Shown: piece after piece, positions 1 to 7,276 of the stretch
Layout of the letters: each line of letters opens with the position of its first letter
Position numbering within the stretch: the stretch's first letter is position 1
NCBI GenBank assembly: GCA_964426185.1
Contig: CAYRPF010000111.1
Location: 1-7,276, forward strand
Direction: 5' to 3'
Length of the DNA stretch: 7,276 nucleotides
Origin: an uncultured archaeon
GTDB lineage: Archaea; Asgardarchaeota; Lokiarchaeia; Sigyniarchaeales; Promethearchaeaceae
The notes under the pieces: generated by a model
Seen by the model: only the letters and a program-made list of their open reading frames with translations
What the model was told of the DNA's origin: nothing
Databases searched by the model: none
Translations under genes and position numbers: made by a program

Positions 1-2
1 GT

Positions 3-53
3 GATGATAACGATCCAATTTCCGGTCCAAGCACCTATTTTAGTGGAAATTAA
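3..53 (+). CDS. Possible 3' end of a gene entering from the left edge (…DDNDPISGPSTYFSGN*)
   Basis: Frame open from the window edge to TAA at 51-53 and followed by T-tracts. Too short to identify; frame 1 (stop at 76-78) is an alternative. Confidence 0.25.
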   Translation, partial: DDNDPISGPSTYFSGN

Positions 54-67
54 ATACCCATCAAATT

Positions 68-102
68 GGATCTTTTAAAATTTTAGATCTTTTTTCTTTT
101 TT
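68..102 (+). terminator. Putative terminator for a plus-strand gene ending at the left edge
   Basis: Weak GATCT...AGATC inverted repeat followed by TTTTTTCTTTTTT on the plus strand. Confidence 0.3.
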
Positions 103-173
103 CTTGTAGTTTCATGTCACGCATTTCTATCTTAGCGTAGTGATAAGAAAATTACAAAATAAAAATCGTCTTG

Positions 174-190
174 AAAAAAAATAAAACAAT
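174..190 (-). terminator. Putative oligo-T terminator of the tusA-dsrE-iscS-iscU operon
   Basis: The minus strand reads ATTGTTTTATTTTTTTT, starting 6 bp after the iscU TAG stop. Confidence 0.4.
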
Positions 191-196
191 GAATGG

Positions 197-1000
197 CTAG
201 CATACAGGTGGAACATTTACCGTATTCAACAACAATAGCTGATCTATGAATAAATCATATTCGCTTTTTTCATCCAAATCTAACATTTTAGCCTTTTCAA
301 CCTCATCATCACCCATAACGGCTAAAATCTTGGCTTCTGTCAATAACTTTACGTTAGACGAACGGAGTTGAGACTTCAAATTCGGGTCATCTGTATGAAT
401 TTTGGTGGCAGAGGTAGCTAAAATCACTCGATTCGTTACTTCAGTTAAATTTAAAGCAGCTCGAATACTCTCATCTCCGTTAAACCTTATTAAAGTTCGC
501 TGATCTTTAAAAACATCCAGCTTTGAGATAGAATAGGATACACCTTTACCCAAATATTCTAATTCACCTAAAATAGAATTATTATCAATTGTATTATCTA
601 CTTCAACTGGTTTTTCCACCATTATTCCTGCACGGTAATTTTTGATTGCTTCATGTAAGGCATCGGCCGCTAAATTACTACAATGCATTTTAATTGGGGG
701 TAAACCATCCAGTTCCTCTGCAACATCCTTGCGGGTGACTTTCAATGCTTCATCTAGCTTCATCCCTTTTACCATTAAGGTTGTCATAGAGCTTGTTGCA
801 ACTGCACTTCCGCAACCAAATGTTTGGAATTTAATATCTTGAATGACATCATCTTCTACTTTGATGTACATTTCCATGATATCACCGCATGTGGGGTTTC
901 CCACCCGTCCCATAGCCACGTTTTCTCCAGTAAGCGTTCCCACATTACGGGGATTACGAAAATGTTCCAATACTTTTTCAGAATATTTTGTTGATTTCAT
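197..1000 (-). CDS. iscU: IscU/NifU-N-type Fe-S scaffold (aa ~1-125) fused to a degenerate thioredoxin-reductase-like NAD(P)H-binding domain (aa ~143-257)
   Basis: N-terminus YSEKVLEHFRNPRNVG; cluster ligands GNPTC38GD40, FGC63GSA and LPPIKMH106C107. The C-terminal half (ILGELEYLGKGVSYS...FKDQRTLIRFNGDESIRAALNLTEVTNRVIL...MGDDEVEKAKMLDLDEKSEYDLFIDQLLL) follows the pattern of the TrxB NADPH domain. A GGTGA RBS lies within the iscS 3' end. Confidence 0.93.
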   Translation of the reverse strand: MKSTKYSEKVLEHFRNPRNVGTLTGENVAMGRVGNPTCGDIMEMYIKVEDDVIQDIKFQTFGCGSAVATSSMTTLMVKGMKLDEALKVTRKDVAEELDGLPPIKMHCSNLAADALHEAIKNYRAGIMVEKPVEVDNTIDNNSILGELEYLGKGVSYSISKLDVFKDQRTLIRFNGDESIRAALNLTEVTNRVILATSATKIHTDDPNLKSQLRSSNVKLLTEAKILAVMGDDEVEKAKMLDLDEKSEYDLFIDQLLLLNTVNVPPVC

Positions 1001-1002
1001 TT

Positions 1003-2196
1003 TTATGTCACCTTTATTTCAGAATAGAGGGGAGATAACTCCCGCAAGCGTTTTACAATCTGTGGAGTCAATTCTACTGCTTTATCAATATGCTCCATAG
1101 TAGTATAACGCCCAGTAGTAAATTCTAATGACCCATGTGCTTCTTCATGCAGCAATCCAGTAGAAATAAGAGTATGCGAAGGTTCCAGTGTTTTAGAGCT
1201 GCAAGCCGATCCTGTAGAAACGGCCATGTTCTGTTCTTTAAACATCAATAGTATGGATTCTCCTTCGATTCCATCAAATCGGAAATGGGTATTATTTGGC
1301 AAACGGTCGGTCGGATGTCCGTTCAAATAGCTGTGGGGAACTTCCGCTAAAATTTCTTTTTGAAGTTTATGTTGATATTGTCGATACCTAGATACTTCTT
1401 CAGCTTGTTTTTCTTGAAGGATTCGGGTGGCTTCTGCCATGCCTACAATTCCTGCAACATTTTCCGTTCCAGATCTTATCCCTTTTTCTTGACCCCCCCC
1501 AATAATAATAGGCGAGACTCGAAAACCCTTTTGAATAAACAATGCTCCCACTCCTTTTGGTCCATAAAAATCATTGCTACTTAGAGACATGATATTGATA
1601 TGATGGTCTTTTGGATGGAGATCTAATTGACCTTGAGCGGCCACCGCATCTGAATGGAGAGCAATTCCATTTTCAGCAGCGATTTCTCCCACTTCATCAA
1701 TGGGTTGAATTGTTCCAATTTCATTGTTAGCATATTGGACTGATATGAGAATTGTTTTATCAGTAATGCGTTTACGAAGTTTTTCCACCCGAATTCGACC
1801 GTATTGGTCAACAGGAACTTTAGAAACTACGAAGCCGTTTTTTTCCAAGTATTTTACCAAGTTATGTTGTGAGATATGTTCAACTTCCGATATTATAATA
1901 TGGTTTCCCTTACGACGATTACGAATTGCATATCCTAACAGCGCGAGATTAACCGATTCGGTGGCTCCTGAAGTGAAAATGATTTCTTCTGGCAAAATTT
2001 TCAGAAAAGAAGCAATTTGTTCTCGCGCTTTGGTGAGTGCATCTTCTGCTACATCTCCGATGGTGTGTAGAGAGGAAGGATTTCCATATAATTGATCAAA
2101 AAATGGTAACATTCGCTTGACTACGCGCTCATCAACAGGTTTACTTGCTTGATAATCCAAATTTATTACGGGTTTTTTATTTTGAGTTTGTGACAT
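1003..2196 (-). CDS. iscS: IscS/NifS-family (group I) cysteine desulfurase homolog with the PLP Lys replaced by Asp (Archaeoglobus-type, probably desulfurase-inactive)
   Basis: Motifs LDYQASKP, YGNPSSLH, IIFTSGATES, EVEH, ANNEIGTIQP, GGGQEKGIRSGTEN and STGSAC332SS. The canonical SxHK motif reads SSN208D209FYGPKG. GGGAG RBS upstream. Confidence 0.95.
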   Translation of the reverse strand: MSQTQNKKPVINLDYQASKPVDERVVKRMLPFFDQLYGNPSSLHTIGDVAEDALTKAREQIASFLKILPEEIIFTSGATESVNLALLGYAIRNRRKGNHIIISEVEHISQHNLVKYLEKNGFVVSKVPVDQYGRIRVEKLRKRITDKTILISVQYANNEIGTIQPIDEVGEIAAENGIALHSDAVAAQGQLDLHPKDHHINIMSLSSNDFYGPKGVGALFIQKGFRVSPIIIGGGQEKGIRSGTENVAGIVGMAEATRILQEKQAEEVSRYRQYQHKLQKEILAEVPHSYLNGHPTDRLPNNTHFRFDGIEGESILLMFKEQNMAVSTGSACSSKTLEPSHTLISTGLLHEEAHGSLEFTTGRYTTMEHIDKAVELTPQIVKRLRELSPLYSEIKVT

Positions 2197-2253
2197 TTTT
2201 TTACTCCCATTAATTTTTTGTGTGAAATTGTTTTACTAAATAATTTTCTGGTG

Positions 2254-2631
2254 TTAAAACCACATGGTTCCTTTTGCATCAAAAACTAAATCGTTTAATG
2301 TAGCAGCACCTACAATCTGTAAAAATGAAGGTAGTTTCACAGAATTCCATCCGAGCATCTGTTTAGAGGCTTCACATACATAAATGGGAATGCCCATATC
2401 ATGTGTTTTCTTTAAGAGTTCAAAAAGTGAGGGAAATGAACCGATTTTTATTTTTTCGGCTTGTTCCTTCGGTAAAACGCGTAAGCTTTGCCCGAGAAAA
2501 TACACTTTTGCCTCAATATCCATTGCTTTTGCGGATTGGGCAAGAATTAAAGGGGAATACTGCCGTTCAGGGTCATCGCTGGTTTGTACATACAGTAGAT
2601 ATTCCTTTTCTTTTTTTTCCGTTTCTGTCAT
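2254..2631 (-). CDS. DsrE/DsrF-like family sulfur carrier protein
   Basis: 125 aa with a DsrE-like layout (LYVQTSDDPER...AQSAKAMDIEAKVYFLGQS...GIPIYVC86EAS...IVGAATL). The single Cys is at the conserved DsrE position. AGGAG RBS upstream; lies between tusA and iscS. Confidence 0.85.
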   Translation of the reverse strand: MTETEKKEKEYLLYVQTSDDPERQYSPLILAQSAKAMDIEAKVYFLGQSLRVLPKEQAEKIKIGSFPSLFELLKKTHDMGIPIYVCEASKQMLGWNSVKLPSFLQIVGAATLNDLVFDAKGTMWF

Positions 2632-2658
2632 GGTTATTTGAGCTCCTGAATTTATCGA

Positions 2659-2898
2659 TTATTTTTTTTGAATCAAAAATCGAAATTCACCGTTTTCTTC
2701 GCTGACTTCTATCAAGATATTTCCCGTTCTTTTACAAAATCGGGTTAAATCCTCCTTTGAGGCTGGATCATCGGCTAGTACCTCTAAGACATCGCCGCTC
2801 TGAAGTTCATCCATCTTGGAGCGGGTTTGAAATAATGGTTCAGGGCAGAACACCCCGATGCAATCTAAGGTTTCTTTGGGTGAATCTGAATTTTTCAT
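2659..2898 (-). CDS. tusA: TusA/SirA-family sulfurtransferase (sulfur carrier)
   Basis: LDCIGVFCPEP contains the CPxP persulfide motif; also GDVLEVLADDPASKEDL and C-terminal FRFLIQK. The ATG at 2898 (79 aa) is preferred over the TTG at 2907 in the ORF track. Confidence 0.92.
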   Translation of the reverse strand: MKNSDSPKETLDCIGVFCPEPLFQTRSKMDELQSGDVLEVLADDPASKEDLTRFCKRTGNILIEVSEENGEFRFLIQKK

Positions 2899-3014
2899 CC
2901 TTATCAATAATTAGATAGTGTGATTAATTTTATTTTAGCCGCTTTTATGAGATAAAGATTTAAGGATAATTGGTTATTTTAGAAACAAAAATTTGCAACT
3001 TCTCAAATATTGGT

Positions 3015-3028
3015 GGAAAATTTATTGA
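3015..3028 (+). promoter_or_regulatory. Putative archaeal BRE/TATA promoter for the HAD gene
   Basis: GGAAAA-TTTATTGA: a purine-rich BRE-like run followed by a TATA-like box about 30 bp upstream of the ATG at 3058. Confidence 0.45.
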
Positions 3029-3057
3029 TTATCAAGTATTGTGCTAAATGATAACTG

Positions 3058-3888
3058 ATGGGTAATATTAAGTGCATTTCATTTGATTTATGGGAGACAA
3101 TAATCCAAGATCATTTCCAATTTGATGCCAGAATAGCTATCTTAGATGAATTTTTGAATACTAAAGGCTTGAAAATTCCTAAGAAGACTCTTAAAAACCG
3201 TTATATGGAAAAAGCAGGCGGATATGCAGAATTTATTACTCAAGAGAGCGATTATCGGCATGTAAGTTACCAGACACGCTTAAGAAAATTCTTCAATTCA
3301 TTTGATCTAGATGTTTCCGAAGAGGAGATGGAATATATTAGTTCCCAGTTTAATCAAGTTTTTTTAGATGACCCTCCCCAGTTTTACTCGGATATAGTAA
3401 AAATTTTACCCAAATTATCTGAAAGTTATCAAATTATACTCATAAGCGATACAGGATTCATTTATGGGAATACCATGCGGGAATTACTTAAAAGAAATAA
3501 CCTTCTCAAGCATTTCTCTCACTGCTACTTTTCCGATGAAACTGGTCATTACAAACCTCATCCCAAAGCTTTCAAACTAGCTGAGAAACAAACGGGATTT
3601 TCCCCGTATGAAATGGTTCATATTGGGGATCGCATTGATACAGATGTGGTGGGGGCTAATAGAAATGGCTGGTGGAGTGGACTAATAGTCAATCACGATG
3701 AAAACAGATGGGATCTGTTCCAAGATAGCCAAAAAAATCATAAATTGAACAATCTCAAACTTACTGGTCAAGAAGCAGCAGAAATTGTGAAAAATAGGGA
3801 AAAAAAGCGAGAACTAGAGAAGATTCCCGATTTTGTTTTAAAGAAATGGGAAGAAATTTGGGATGAATTAAAAAAAATAAATAGTTGA
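3058..3888 (+). CDS. HAD-superfamily hydrolase, subfamily IA-like; substrate unknown
   Basis: Motif I ISFDLWET, motif II ISDTG, motif III YKPHP, motif IV HIGDRIDTDVVGA, helical cap between motifs I and II, C-terminal PDFVL strand. Confidence 0.9.
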   Translation: MGNIKCISFDLWETIIQDHFQFDARIAILDEFLNTKGLKIPKKTLKNRYMEKAGGYAEFITQESDYRHVSYQTRLRKFFNSFDLDVSEEEMEYISSQFNQVFLDDPPQFYSDIVKILPKLSESYQIILISDTGFIYGNTMRELLKRNNLLKHFSHCYFSDETGHYKPHPKAFKLAEKQTGFSPYEMVHIGDRIDTDVVGANRNGWWSGLIVNHDENRWDLFQDSQKNHKLNNLKLTGQEAAEIVKNREKKRELEKIPDFVLKKWEEIWDELKKINS

Positions 3889-3897
3889 AATCCTAAT

Positions 3898-6267
3898 TCA
3901 AAAATTCTGATGTTCGGTGCGTCTGATTATTTCTTCTTGCAGTTTCTGTCCTAAATTAATAAAGTAATCACTGTAACCCGCCACCCTTACTATTAAATTG
4001 CGATATTGCTCAGGATTTTTCTGAGCTGCCCTTAGAGTAGCTGCATCGACCACGTTGAACTGGATATGATGTCCATCCATTTTAAAATACGACCGAATTA
4101 AGTGAAGCACCTTTATAAGACCTGACTCTTCTTGCAGCAAAGATGGATTAAACTTCTGATTCAGCAAGGTTCCACCAGTTCTTAAATGGTCGAGTTTAGC
4201 TGCTGATTTGAGAACGGCGGTTGGTCCTTTTATATCAGCACCTTGTACCGGTGAAATTCCCTCTGATAATGGCATCATGGCTTCTCTACCATCCGGTGTG
4301 GCACCGATTACAGAACCAAAATAAACATGAACAGTAGTTGGGAGCAAATTTATGCGATAATGGCCTCCTTTCGAGTTAGGGCGGCCGTCTACTAAATCAA
4401 AAAGGACATCAAACACTTCTTGTGCAAATCTATCGGCATAATCGTCATCATTACCATATTTTGGAGTGTCATTGATCAATTTATGCCGAAAATCGTGATA
4501 TCCTTCAAAGTTTTTATCCAATATATTTACTAATTCGTTCAAGGTCAGTGATTTTTCATCAAAAACATGTTTTTTTATTGCGGCTAACGAATCGGAGATA
4601 GATCCCATCCCAACCATTTGAATATAATTACTGTTATAGCGCGCCCCTCCGGCGTTATAATCCTTTCCCTTTTTAATACAATCTTCTATAATAATAGATA
4701 AGAAAACCGCCGGTAGTTCTCTGGCCCATAACTGTTCAATAATTTGATTTCCCTTTATCTTGATATCAATAAAATATGCTAATTGTTTCTTAAAAGCCTC
4801 GAAGAATGCTTCATAATTTTCAAACGTATCATTTTCTCCAGTTCTCGGACCAATTTGTTTTTGGGTGCGGGAATCAAATCCATTATGCAATGTAATTTCT
4901 AAAACTTTTACAATATTGAAATATCCGGTTAGGATATAAGCTTCTTTTCCAAAAGCGCCCACTTCCACACATCCACTGGCTCCAGAAAGGCGGGCTTCAA
5001 CCAAATCTTTACCTTGTCTTAAAAGTTCCTGGATAATAGCGTCACAATTAAATATAGAGGGTTGGCCGAAACCCGTTTTTATGATATCTAAAGCGCGCAT
5101 TAAGAGGCGATCGGGCGTTTTTTTGCTGATTTGAACATTGGAACTGGGTTGTAATATACGCATTTGCTGAATGGTGTCGAGTATCATATAAGATAGTGGA
5201 TTAGTGCCATCTGACCCATCCGCCTTCAATCCACCGATGTTGATATTGCAAAAATCAGTATATGTATTGCTTTCTTCGGCTGTAACTCCGACTTTTGGCG
5301 GTGCTGGCTGGTTGTTAAATTTGATCCAAAAAGCTTGAAGCAATTCTCTAGCGAATTCTTCATCCCATTTCCCCTCTGCAAGTTCTTTTTGATAGAAGGG
5401 AAAAAGATTCTGATCCAATCGACCTGGATTAAAGGAATCCCAAGTATTTAATTCAGTTATTACTCCCAAATGGATAAACCAATAATGCTGAAGCGCTTCC
5501 CAGAAATTTCGTGGAGTATGTGCCGGAACCCAATCACAAATCTCCGCAATTTGAAGCAATTCTCGCTTTCTCTGCGGATCCAATGCAGAATTTTCATTTG
5601 CCATTGTTCTGGCTAGTTCTGCATAACGATGGGCAAAAGCGATAATAGCTTCGGCGGCAATATTCATAGCCCTTAATTGATCCCGTTTCATTAATGCCTC
5701 CGGATCGTTTAAGAAATCGAGTTTAGAGATGGATTGCTGAATTTCCTTGATGAAATCTAGCATTCCTTTTTGAAAGACTTGCTTACCCGCTACAGTATGC
5801 CCGGGAGCGCGTTGTTCCATGAATTCAGTAAACACACCTGCTTTATAGGCAGCAATCCATTCTTGATCCATTTCTGAAAAGATTTTGTCTCTGATAGATT
5901 TTCCTTTCCAAAATGGAAGAATCACTGATTGAGTGAGCTTTTTAGTCTCCTCTGTTACCTTAAATGATATTTTTGGGCGATTATGTAAAATATCCAGATC
6001 CTTCAATGTATGACAGCATATTTCGGGATAAGTAGGCGTTGCCAGGGGCGCCGGTCCCCTTTCTCCAACGATTAATTCCCCCTCATTAATGCAGATTTCC
6101 TTATTTTCAAGAATATGACGAAATGCCAAAGCTCGCATTATGGGCGTTGGATATTGTTGATTTTCATGATTTTGATAGAATTCGGTAATTAGCTTTGCCC
6201 GTTCTATTGAAAGTTCCGGTTGGGTGCTCACACTTTGTTCTCTTAAGCGGTGTATACGTTCGTTCAT
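3898..6267 (-). CDS. hypD: Glycyl radical enzyme, trans-4-hydroxy-L-proline dehydratase
   Basis: 789 aa. Glycyl loop RVAG764YS and Cys loop SGC433VE435. HypD-type segments PTYPEICCH, FTEFMEQRAPGH157TV, W276D277, FNNQPAPPKVG, ES333NTYTD338F339, LTGY449 and LPT644T match the Clostridioides difficile HypD active-site set as recalled (H160, D278, S334, D339, F340, C434, E436, Y450, T645, G765). Confidence 0.9.
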   Translation of the reverse strand: MNERIHRLREQSVSTQPELSIERAKLITEFYQNHENQQYPTPIMRALAFRHILENKEICINEGELIVGERGPAPLATPTYPEICCHTLKDLDILHNRPKISFKVTEETKKLTQSVILPFWKGKSIRDKIFSEMDQEWIAAYKAGVFTEFMEQRAPGHTVAGKQVFQKGMLDFIKEIQQSISKLDFLNDPEALMKRDQLRAMNIAAEAIIAFAHRYAELARTMANENSALDPQRKRELLQIAEICDWVPAHTPRNFWEALQHYWFIHLGVITELNTWDSFNPGRLDQNLFPFYQKELAEGKWDEEFARELLQAFWIKFNNQPAPPKVGVTAEESNTYTDFCNINIGGLKADGSDGTNPLSYMILDTIQQMRILQPSSNVQISKKTPDRLLMRALDIIKTGFGQPSIFNCDAIIQELLRQGKDLVEARLSGASGCVEVGAFGKEAYILTGYFNIVKVLEITLHNGFDSRTQKQIGPRTGENDTFENYEAFFEAFKKQLAYFIDIKIKGNQIIEQLWARELPAVFLSIIIEDCIKKGKDYNAGGARYNSNYIQMVGMGSISDSLAAIKKHVFDEKSLTLNELVNILDKNFEGYHDFRHKLINDTPKYGNDDDYADRFAQEVFDVLFDLVDGRPNSKGGHYRINLLPTTVHVYFGSVIGATPDGREAMMPLSEGISPVQGADIKGPTAVLKSAAKLDHLRTGGTLLNQKFNPSLLQEESGLIKVLHLIRSYFKMDGHHIQFNVVDAATLRAAQKNPEQYRNLIVRVAGYSDYFINLGQKLQEEIIRRTEHQNF

Positions 6268-6269
6268 TT

Positions 6270-7055
6270 TTACCCTCCAATTTTACAGTTGGGAAAGGTT
6301 TTTAGAAAAAAATTGCGAATTTCTTGCATGCGTTCCGAAGTCGGTGGCTTTAAATTGGTTAATCGATATTCACATCCCAATTGTTTATATTTTCGAATTC
6401 CAAATGTATTATATGAAAGAAGACTGATATCTCCAGTGAAATGGACTTGTTTCAAGTAATTTTTGATAGAAACCAGATTTGCTTCCGAATCTGTTATACT
6501 AGGTATAATCGGGATGCGGATATGTACATTTTGGTGATTTTCTATAAGTCGAATTAAATTGTTTAAAATCTCATGGTTATCTACTCCTGTATATTTTTTA
6601 TGGCTTTCATTATCAATTAACTTTAGATCATACAAGAATAGATCAATGTTTGACAGCATAGGCTCTAAAATTTCCCAAGAAACATAACCAGACGTGTCAA
6701 CAACAGTATGCAGCCCTTGTTTTTTACATTCATCCAGAAGTTTGGCCAGATATTTTGGCTGCATAAAAGGTTCTCCGCCCGAAAATGTTACACCACCGTC
6801 TGATTCATCGTAAAAAATTCTATCCTTCAAAATTTCATTCATAACTTCTGCTACATTCATGGTTTTTCCGATTATTTCTTGAAAATTGGGACCAGTTAGA
6901 TATTTCTGAGGTTCTAATTGCTGACTTTCTGGATTATGGCACCACCAGCATGATAATGGGCATCCCTTCAAGAAGATTGTGGTCCGTATACCTGGACCAT
7001 CGTGAATTGCGAATTTTTTAATGTCAAAAACAATACCACTAAGTTGATTGCCCAT
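6270..7055 (-). CDS. Glycyl-radical enzyme activating enzyme (radical SAM, PflA family), cognate HypD activase, short form
   Basis: HDGPGIRTTIFLKGC32PLSC36WWC39HNPES (CX3CX2C), GGVTFSGGEP, VDTSG, LYDLKL, HKKYTG and RIPIIP motifs; stop lies 2 bp before the hypD start. Confidence 0.95.
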   Translation of the reverse strand: MGNQLSGIVFDIKKFAIHDGPGIRTTIFLKGCPLSCWWCHNPESQQLEPQKYLTGPNFQEIIGKTMNVAEVMNEILKDRIFYDESDGGVTFSGGEPFMQPKYLAKLLDECKKQGLHTVVDTSGYVSWEILEPMLSNIDLFLYDLKLIDNESHKKYTGVDNHEILNNLIRLIENHQNVHIRIPIIPSITDSEANLVSIKNYLKQVHFTGDISLLSYNTFGIRKYKQLGCEYRLTNLKPPTSERMQEIRNFFLKTFPNCKIGG

Positions 7056-7276
7056 AAAATTAGGAAAAAATTACTAAAATATGAATTTATGTAAAAACCA
7101 CAACATTCATCCCATTATGCCCAATCTCCGACATCATGCCACACTATGACTTAGCATGAAGATAACTATCCATCCGACATGGTGCCGATAGGCACCAGCA
7201 TCACGTTAAGCCGTTAGCATGTCTCTCTATATTTTTCAGAAGACACCACACCTAACTAACCCAAAGATTTAAGCGG

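Follow-up and report, generated by a model that had tools for sequence, protein, structure and literature searches.

A remnant of a thioredoxin-reductase-type flavoenzyme on the IscU scaffold of a minimal Fe-S cluster assembly operon in Lokiarchaeia

Why does the scaffold protein of a minimal Fe-S cluster assembly system carry a piece of a flavoenzyme? The question is raised by an uncultured archaeon of the Promethearchaeaceae (Lokiarchaeia), whose genome is congeneric with Candidatus Harpocratesius repetitus (L018). The analyzed stretch of DNA, hereafter the window, comprises 7,276 nucleotides (contig CAYRPF010000111.1 of assembly GCA_964426185.1, positions 1 to 7,276) and contains an iscU gene for a protein of 267 aa, immediately behind an iscS-like gene. 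Our results showed that this product is an IscU scaffold of the minimal IscS-IscU (MIS) type, carrying at its C-terminus the NAD(P)H domain of a low-molecular-weight flavoprotein of the thioredoxin reductase (TrxR) type. The source of sulfur and electrons in minimal systems has been stressed as an open question in a 2026 review (PMC13066941).

An IscU scaffold with a stripped NAD(P)H-type domain

The N-terminal part of the protein matched the Pfam family NifU_N (PF01592) over residues 5-124 (E 7e-48, 162.5 bits against a cut-off of 22), and the protein also passed the NCBIfam model NifU_clost (188.9 bits, cut-off 187.9). The IscU fold of this domain was recovered by Foldseek matches to 4eb5_C, 7c8m and 3lvl_A, with target template-modelling scores of 0.82-0.92 and root-mean-square deviations (rmsd) of 1.3-1.7 Å, the top match being the Archaeoglobus fulgidus IscU 4eb5_C (62% identity, rmsd 1.5 Å). 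The ligands C38, C63 and C107, together with D40 and H106, are all present and are invariant in 47 family members. NifU proper likewise consists of an IscU-type N-terminal domain with extra C-terminal modules (BFD-type [2Fe-2S] and Nfu). However, the domain added here is unrelated to those modules and has no cysteines and no cluster, and the NCBIfam model NifU_proper gave only 147.5 bits against a cut-off of 273.3, covering residues 5-129 with no Cys-bearing C-terminal domains.

The C-terminal 143 aa alone matched solved TrxR-type proteins, namely 2zbw (E 4e-7), the ferredoxin-NADP reductase (FNR) 5xhu (3e-6) and AhpF (8e-5). With a profile built from 47 family sequences, 2zbw reached E 3e-14, ahead of YumC-type FNRs and true TrxRs. 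In addition, the NCBIfam model TRX_reduct matched residues 141-254 over model positions 115-229 of 300, though well below its cut-off (E 6e-11), and the Pfam scan gave a sub-threshold match only to Pyr_redox_3 (residues 154-236) and none to Pyr_redox_2 in the fusion protein. In both the sequence and the structural alignment the remnant covers only chain positions ~113-255 of TrxRs, and it has the fold of their NADPH domain. A first-pass annotation, made from the sequence of the window alone, had read the region as a pseudo-enzyme module that goes back to the NAD(P)H domain of a TrxR, without nucleotide motifs or FAD domain, and had expected a TrxB-like match in profile and structure searches; these matches bear it out. 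The span that it marked (200-574) corresponds exactly to residues 143-267, and the peptide that it quoted is residues 143-196 of the open reading frame (ORF) 197-1000 on the minus strand.

The motifs of the ancestral enzyme could be followed in the HMMER alignment to 2zbw. GGGDSA stands opposite F173-N-G-D-E-S178, as had been read by eye, and the first glycine of the GxGxxA loop is gone. The loss of the HRR motif was also recognized correctly, but its replacement had been given as ATS, one residue out of register, because HRR aligns to T196-S197-A198. Across the family the consensus at these positions is D-x-G-D-x-S for the loop and T-S/P-A for HRR. The CxxC region reads S-Y-S-I-S-K, so that CxxC is absent as claimed; its loss is in doubt, since neither 2zbw nor any of 115 clusters of full-length fusions (described below) has CxxC, and the motif may never have been present. 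No cysteine occurred in the domain core of any of the 84 family sequences. There is also no FAD-binding domain with GxGxxG, because the chain stops at residue 267, where TrxRs return to the FAD domain. The remnant is thus stripped of every requirement for redox chemistry, i.e. the FAD domain, the first glycine of GxGxxA, HRR and CxxC. As flavin domain, nucleotide loop and redox cysteines are all missing, redox catalysis by the fusion protein was set aside.

In contrast to TrxR-type FNRs and TrxR-like proteins (2ZBW of T. thermophilus, YumC 3LZW of B. subtilis, 5XHU), TrxRs and AhpF, the window protein has no FAD domain, glycine loop or HRR. Judged from these motifs, cofactors would not be expected in the remnant, unlike in TrxR-type FNRs, low-molecular-weight TrxRs and AhpF. 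None of the three tested features (FAD domain, NADPH site and CxxC) was found, so the protein does not fall in the TrxR/FNR enzyme family; it belongs to the IscU family and is homologous to TrxR/FNR enzymes in one domain only.

Distribution and conservation of the fusion

Among species-representative genomes, 196 relatives were confirmed by tblastn, and their taxonomy was taken from the best 80 of the 196. These 80 include many Asgard classes, Methanobacteriota, Halobacteriota and Bathyarchaeia, and the bacteria among them belong to Zixibacteria, WOR-3, Thermodesulfobacteriota, Aminicenantes, Actinomycetota and Spirochaetota and include the cultured strain NaphS2. Orthologues in the protein database (53-83% identity) keep the same architecture, and of 40 related genomes in the order, 33 gave a strong match, with open frames of ~265-300 aa. 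The domain lies in frame behind NifU_N in 93 of 94 independent loci, the remaining one being truncated where its contig stops, and every orthologous gene in the loci examined contains it.

On a contig as short as this one (7.3 kb), the junction of iscU with a trxB-like fragment might have arisen during assembly or gene calling, and nothing else spoke for such an artefact. It is refuted by the same junction in 84 distinct sequences from independent assemblies, among them closed chromosomes and a 4.36-Mb single contig of the same genus. The search proposed earlier for other proteins combining NifU_N with a partial flavoreductase, and the objection of a chimeric contig, are thereby answered: the fusion is not unique to this contig, and the same in-frame architecture recurs throughout the family. 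Four candidates for stand-alone remnants (P0015, P0017, P0019 and P0022) were rejected, as they look like cut or frameshifted ORFs.

Twelve residues were invariant in the 84 distinct sequences (G153, R168, L185, R191, V192, S215, K218, G230, D241, E244, Y248 and D253), all of which are present in the window's protein, and ~11 further residues were near-invariant. The length and the ends of the 118-aa remnant are conserved as well. Within the genus, the non-synonymous difference was 0.16-0.26 for the domain and 0.05-0.09 for the IscU domain. Synonymous sites were saturated in every available pair (pS 0.63-0.84), which precludes a ratio of non-synonymous to synonymous change, so raw non-synonymous differences and family-wide invariance were used instead. 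These results showed that purifying selection acts on the domain in archaea and bacteria alike, though some three times less strongly than on the scaffold; selection of this kind had been one of the checks suggested in advance. The faster evolution and the loss of all catalytic motifs are what a functionless leftover or spacer, not yet lost, would also display. However, the invariance of 12 residues across archaea and bacteria, the conserved length and ends, the long history of a family that is monophyletic at 100/100 (see below) and its retention in every orthologous gene examined make such a leftover very improbable.

Lysine-less partner, full-length relatives and possible role

IscS is encoded directly upstream of the fusion gene in 82 of 83 loci. 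At the position of the lysine that binds pyridoxal phosphate (PLP), the 75 scorable partners carry Asp (70) or Glu (5) and never Lys, and every one of them retains the Cys loop. Thus the remnant is always paired with an IscS of the A. fulgidus IscS2 type. The top solved match of the window's IscS was A. fulgidus IscS2 itself (4eb5_A, E 5e-123); its SSNDFYGPKG aligned with SSNDIYGPKG of the A. fulgidus protein and with SSNK of the D199K variant, and its Cys loop reads GSACSS. The A. fulgidus IscS2-IscU pair (PDB 4EB5, 4EB7, 4HVK; D199K variant 4R5F) is a MIS form whose 'inactive desulfurase' lacks the PLP lysine. Similarly, the window's IscS has the same Asp in the SSND motif, and iscS-iscU forms a two-gene unit; hscAB, fdx and iscA are all absent from the window. 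The absence of desulfurase activity, and a cluster held between IscU and an IscS cysteine, have been reported for the A. fulgidus proteins only (PMC13066941; PDB titles), and by analogy the window's IscS may be a catalytically dead desulfurase. The two systems differ in that the crystallised A. fulgidus IscU chain has 138 residues and no C-terminal Rossmann remnant, whereas the window operon adds a remnant flavoreductase domain on IscU, TusA and DsrE.

The genome of the window (G000) also contains two other NifS-like genes in which the PLP lysine is intact, a second IscU-like protein of 162 aa, and SufB. The two lysine-keeping genes mark the iscS-fusion pair as a specialised one. On gene content, the operon is apparently a specialised and not the sole Fe-S route, with at least three Fe-S or sulfur-mobilising routes coexisting in this organism.

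Complete fusions of IscU with a flavoreductase also exist, which strengthens the earlier suggestion of a relic of an IscU-TrxR fusion, as they stand in the same operon context of DsrE and lysine-less IscS. A profile search found P0048 (443 aa), with NifU_N followed by a complete Pyr_redox_2 containing the FAD GxGxxG, the NADPH GGGNSA and HRK, and no CxxC. A follow-up search found 115 clusters of ~444-aa fusions in Methanoperedens, anaerobic methanotrophic archaea (ANME), Methanosarcinales and Jordarchaeia. Like the window protein, these full-length forms have an N-terminal IscU domain, a lysine-less IscS upstream, DsrE in the operon, no CxxC, and derived NADPH-domain residues in common with it. 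They differ in possessing the whole FAD domain, the window protein having the middle domain only. The Methanoperedens type preserves a complete NADPH site (GGGNSA, HR[KR]), whereas the site is degenerate in Jordarchaeia (GNGEQA/YKEK) and in ANME-like forms (G[HR]GYNA). In Methanoperedens the operon order is DsrE, IscS (lysine-less, SSND), fusion and flavodoxin, an arrangement carried with an intact full-length fusion by L113:3263-7023 (a Methanoperedens contig) and L111:1-2356. One annotation of this operon type places a 53-aa rubredoxin-like ORF between dsrE and iscS. The natural reading of the domain content and the neighbouring gene is that the full-length forms provide a NAD(P)H-to-flavodoxin electron supply to the scaffold, and judged by its genes, the Methanoperedens-type operon seems to bring its own complete electron supply to a minimal Fe-S system. 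The central module of NifU has been proposed as an electron supplier (PMC13066941), and full-length flavoreductase fusions may act likewise.

In databases the full-length fusions are named 'Fe-S cluster assembly scaffold protein NifU' or 'thioredoxin reductase (NADPH)', and the truncated ones plain 'NifU/IscU scaffold'. Our literature search, with subscription journals mostly outside its reach, found no report of a truncated or full-length IscU-TrxR-like fusion, and the MIS review (PMC13066941) has zero occurrences of 'fused' or 'thioredoxin reductase'.

The flavodoxin gene beside the full-length relatives makes a small redox protein a probable partner of the ancestral enzyme. The remnant might accordingly have been kept as a landing pad for an outside partner, either ferredoxin or flavodoxin delivering electrons or TusA or DsrE delivering sulfur. 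TusA and DsrE are encoded in the operon here and in most family members, and charged residues of surface type are conserved (R168, R191, K218, K236, E235, D241 and E244). However, the Pfam scan found no flavodoxin gene in the window, and although 68 of 84 fusion genes have a TusA homologue and 44 of 84 a DsrE homologue within 4 kb (some flanks being short), one or the other is missing near a fair share of the loci. To our knowledge, there is no report of the NADPH domain alone docking ferredoxin or flavodoxin in TrxR-type FNRs. We regard an outside partner of this kind as unlikely. It is in essence the proposal of the first-pass annotation, a module docking thioredoxin or a sulfur carrier for persulfide reduction, which gained no support here; the single binding prediction made (see below) favours IscS as the partner, if weakly.

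Derived residues connect the truncated domain with the full-length fusions. R168, K218, K236, E244, D245 and L220 are common to the truncated family and all full-length fusions (at least 88%) and occur in at most 35% of free-standing relatives, while H240, S215, L250 and K152 are common only to the truncated family and the Jordarchaeia type. The identity to the Jordarchaeia-type NADPH domain is 42% for a typical truncated domain and 30% for that of the window, and 69% between the IscU domains. In a careful maximum-likelihood tree of NADPH domains (80 rows, 113 columns), the truncated family is monophyletic at 100/100 with the window's protein inside, and the full-length fusions form one clade (93/89) within the CxxC-less group. 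A quick maximum-likelihood tree of 132 rows was discarded, as on the 80-row subset a constrained tree was 23.5 log-likelihood units better than the quick free tree. Judged from these sequences, the truncated domain is probably the leftover of a whole IscU-fused flavoreductase, produced by one fusion and then stepwise reduction. The ancestor would have been a complete flavoreductase fused to IscU, plausibly feeding electrons into cluster assembly; its NADPH site would then have decayed while the FAD domain was kept, as in the Jordarchaeia type, and deletion of the FAD domain would have given the truncated form.

Several proteins outside this series were also observed. Three long open frames in G016, G018 and G014 were tried as full-length fusions and rejected: two are stop-to-stop frames overlapping iscS, and the third, from a metagenome-assembled genome of 66% completeness (G014, L107:1032-2639), oddly joins IscS to the remnant. 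Its 536 aa contain IscS (9-372) and, behind it, the C-terminal half of the remnant, with no IscU domain; a deletion, a frameshift in the assembly or a genuine fusion of IscS and remnant could each account for it. Eight free-standing TrxR-like proteins of ~293-319 aa (P0052, P0080, P0083, P0086, P0090, P0092, P0099 and P0155) have a degenerate NADPH glycine loop (e.g. GNNERA, GKGDEL) and at least one cysteine left in the CxxC region. They stood loosely near the remnant family in the 132-row quick tree, perhaps by long-branch attraction, and are scattered among CxxC-type TrxRs in the careful 80-row tree. They may be NADPH-independent (ferredoxin- or F420-dependent) thioredoxin reductases.

Six residues, S178, T189, R191, T196, Y248 and F251, are invariant in the truncated family only; of these, S178 falls within what was the glycine-rich loop and T196 where HRR used to be. 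Together with R191 just upstream of the latter and the retained G175, they would fit a nucleotide pocket rebuilt for another small ligand or a metal, as in a sensor or a frataxin-like iron-delivery module. The domain is acidic in all members (pI 4.4-5.2, median net charge -10 over 118 residues), and CyaY/frataxin and Fdx are IscS-binding proteins of similar acidity. However, the domain has no conserved Cys or His cluster, and the family-common H240 and D173 are Leu and Phe in the window protein, so that a site built on them is not kept there; we consider a rebuilt pocket quite improbable. An extreme of acidity is seen in P0019, in which a truncated-type remnant is followed by a tail of ~55 residues, nearly all Asp or Glu with few Trp, Gly, Ala and Val.

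Our tentative reading of the present role is that the remnant is a non-redox module holding or positioning IscU on the inactive IscS. The truncated domain would no longer move electrons; as an acidic protein-protein module on a flexible linker it would dock on the inactive IscS dimer and so hold IscU there or position it, and a single mobile cysteine beside the domain, mostly in the linker and here C267, may take part in sulfur or cluster handling. This role is suggested by the strict co-occurrence with a dead IscS, the tether and the acidic surface, which fit such docking. A complex was predicted from the IscS dimer, the IscU domain and the remnant as scored partner, with four chains and custom alignments, unlike the complexes used for calibration. 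The remnant reached an interaction score from aligned errors (ipSAE) of 0.59, the best control reaching 0.02. The score fell to 0.02 when IscS alone was replaced, indicating that it is IscS, not the IscU domain, that determines the placement. The runs agreed in at least 86% of contacts, with a partner confidence (predicted local distance difference test, pLDDT) of at least 82. In the calibration, 58 of 80 solved complexes passed the mark, as did 2 of 110 mismatches; scores up to 0.60 occurred in only 7 of the 80 solved complexes and in both passing mismatches. The modelled complex thus lends weak support to docking of the remnant on IscS.

The flanking cysteine shows a lineage-specific pattern. 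It lies in the linker only in 66 members, in the tail only in 9, in both in none and in neither in 14; among the 84 distinct family sequences, 63 have the linker cysteine. The typical linker cysteine is ~8 residues before the domain, where the window protein has N136, with C267 at its C-terminus instead. A tail cysteine was found only in this archaeal family, in four genera and only where the linker cysteine is missing, in differing contexts (PPVC, TTEC, NQCA and SKCS), and one genus of the family keeps the linker cysteine. The same lineage has F/Y for the family's D173 and L/K for H240. The combined pattern reflects one or a few evolutionary events and serves as a lead, not as statistics. A metal site formed by the linker Cys, D173 and H240 was considered and rejected, as they are jointly replaced in one lineage only and the Cys-less bacteria keep D173 and H240. 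The NADPH domain of TrxR-type folds begins and ends in crossover strands that lie side by side, and the structural alignment takes in both ends. With the chain ends adjacent, linker and tail cysteines could reach similar space, although both segments have low confidence in the models. A bolder proposal makes the remnant and its mobile cysteine an active arm on the dead IscS, swinging sulfur from TusA or DsrE (or sulfide) to the IscU site. If true, this would replace the lost cysteine-desulfurase chemistry and make the operon a cysteine-independent route of Fe-S assembly, and the move of the cysteine from linker to C-terminus, beside adjacent domain ends, would be a conserved functional feature. 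We think it rather unlikely.

Taken as a whole, a fusion followed by reduction to an IscS-docking module is a reasonably likely account and the best explanation of these data. Several results weigh against it. The truncated family is not inside the full-length clade but sits on a long branch near a deep split, on the side of the CxxC-bearing TrxRs, and a tree with all fusions as one clade is 4.4 log-likelihood units lower and merely not rejected (approximately unbiased test, p 0.40); the single-fusion origin is for these reasons rated as probable and not as shown. The complex prediction was a weak pass and gave no interface. In A. fulgidus, a Lys-less IscS is paired with an IscU that has no remnant domain, so the domain is not needed for formation of a Lys-less pair. 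The six residues invariant only in the truncated family, with S178 and T196 in the former nucleotide site, could mark a new ligand site rather than a clamp. Finally, the 14 members with neither flanking cysteine are bacterial, and any role of that cysteine is therefore not universal.

Gene layout of the window and wider meaning

The genes for TusA, the DsrE-like protein, the IscS-like protein and the fusion are four genes in one orientation on the minus strand of the window (Table 1). Beyond tusA, in divergent orientation to this operon, lies a gene for a hydrolase of the HAD family, which also adjoins tusA in the relative's locus L004; in the Jordarchaeia-type locus L112 a HAD hydrolase is located between an aminotransferase and the fusion gene. 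The HAD hydrolase may be a recurrent neighbour of the Fe-S operon. The remainder of the window encodes a glycyl-radical enzyme with a radical-SAM activase directly upstream of it. In locus L004 a comparable activase is found close to the Fe-S operon, but no large glycyl-radical enzyme in the stretch shown.

Table 1. Positions of the features discussed; coordinates are those of the window unless a contig is named
Feature	Position	Strand	Remarks
Fusion gene, IscU::TrxR-like remnant, 267 aa	197..1000	-	stop codon 197-199; ORF translation
IscU scaffold domain, residues 1-124	629..1000	-	Pfam NifU_N; C38, D40, C63, H106, C107
Linker, residues 125-142	575..628	-	partly predicted disordered; pLDDT < 50 at 131-140
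Remnant NAD(P)H-type Rossmann domain, residues 143-260	221..574	-	acidic, cysteine-free
Degenerate motif SYSISK (CxxC region)	521-538	-	
Degenerate motif FNGDES	467-484	-	
Degenerate motif TSA	407-415	-	
C-terminal tail, residues 261-267 (TVNVPPVC)	200..220	-	ends in C267; low confidence in both structure models
iscS-like partner, 397 aa	1003..2196	-	stops 2 bp ahead of iscU start
Asp209 of IscS-like protein, at PLP-lysine position	1570-1572	-	
C332 of IscS-like protein, Cys loop retained	1201-1203	-	
dsrE-like, small sulfur-carrier protein	2254..2631	-	same operon as fusion; Pfam DsrE E 1e-11
tusA, TusA sulfur carrier with CPEP motif	2659..2907	-	first operon gene; Pfam TusA E 8e-26
HAD-family hydrolase, 276 aa	3058-3888	+	divergent from tusA operon
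PFL-like glycyl-radical enzyme, 789 aa	within 3898-7055	-	Pfam PFL-like E 5e-228, plus Gly_radical domain
Radical-SAM activase, 261 aa	within 3898-7055	-	directly upstream of the glycyl-radical enzyme
Other Fe-S/sulfur genes of the same genome (G000)	C37:81-1214; C110:388-876 and 3756-4862; C6:57364-58044		

Minimal IscS-IscU systems whose IscS is inactive and lacks the lysine are regarded as ancient, and a remnant on the scaffold of such a system bears on how these systems work. Hundreds of anaerobes, including cultured relatives from the Asgard lineage and the cultured sulfate reducer NaphS2, carry a flavoreductase-derived add-on on that scaffold. For the full-length forms, the complete reductase beside a flavodoxin gene provides a concrete hypothesis of electron supply. 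The fusion family as a whole offers a natural series leading from an enzyme domain to a non-catalytic module.

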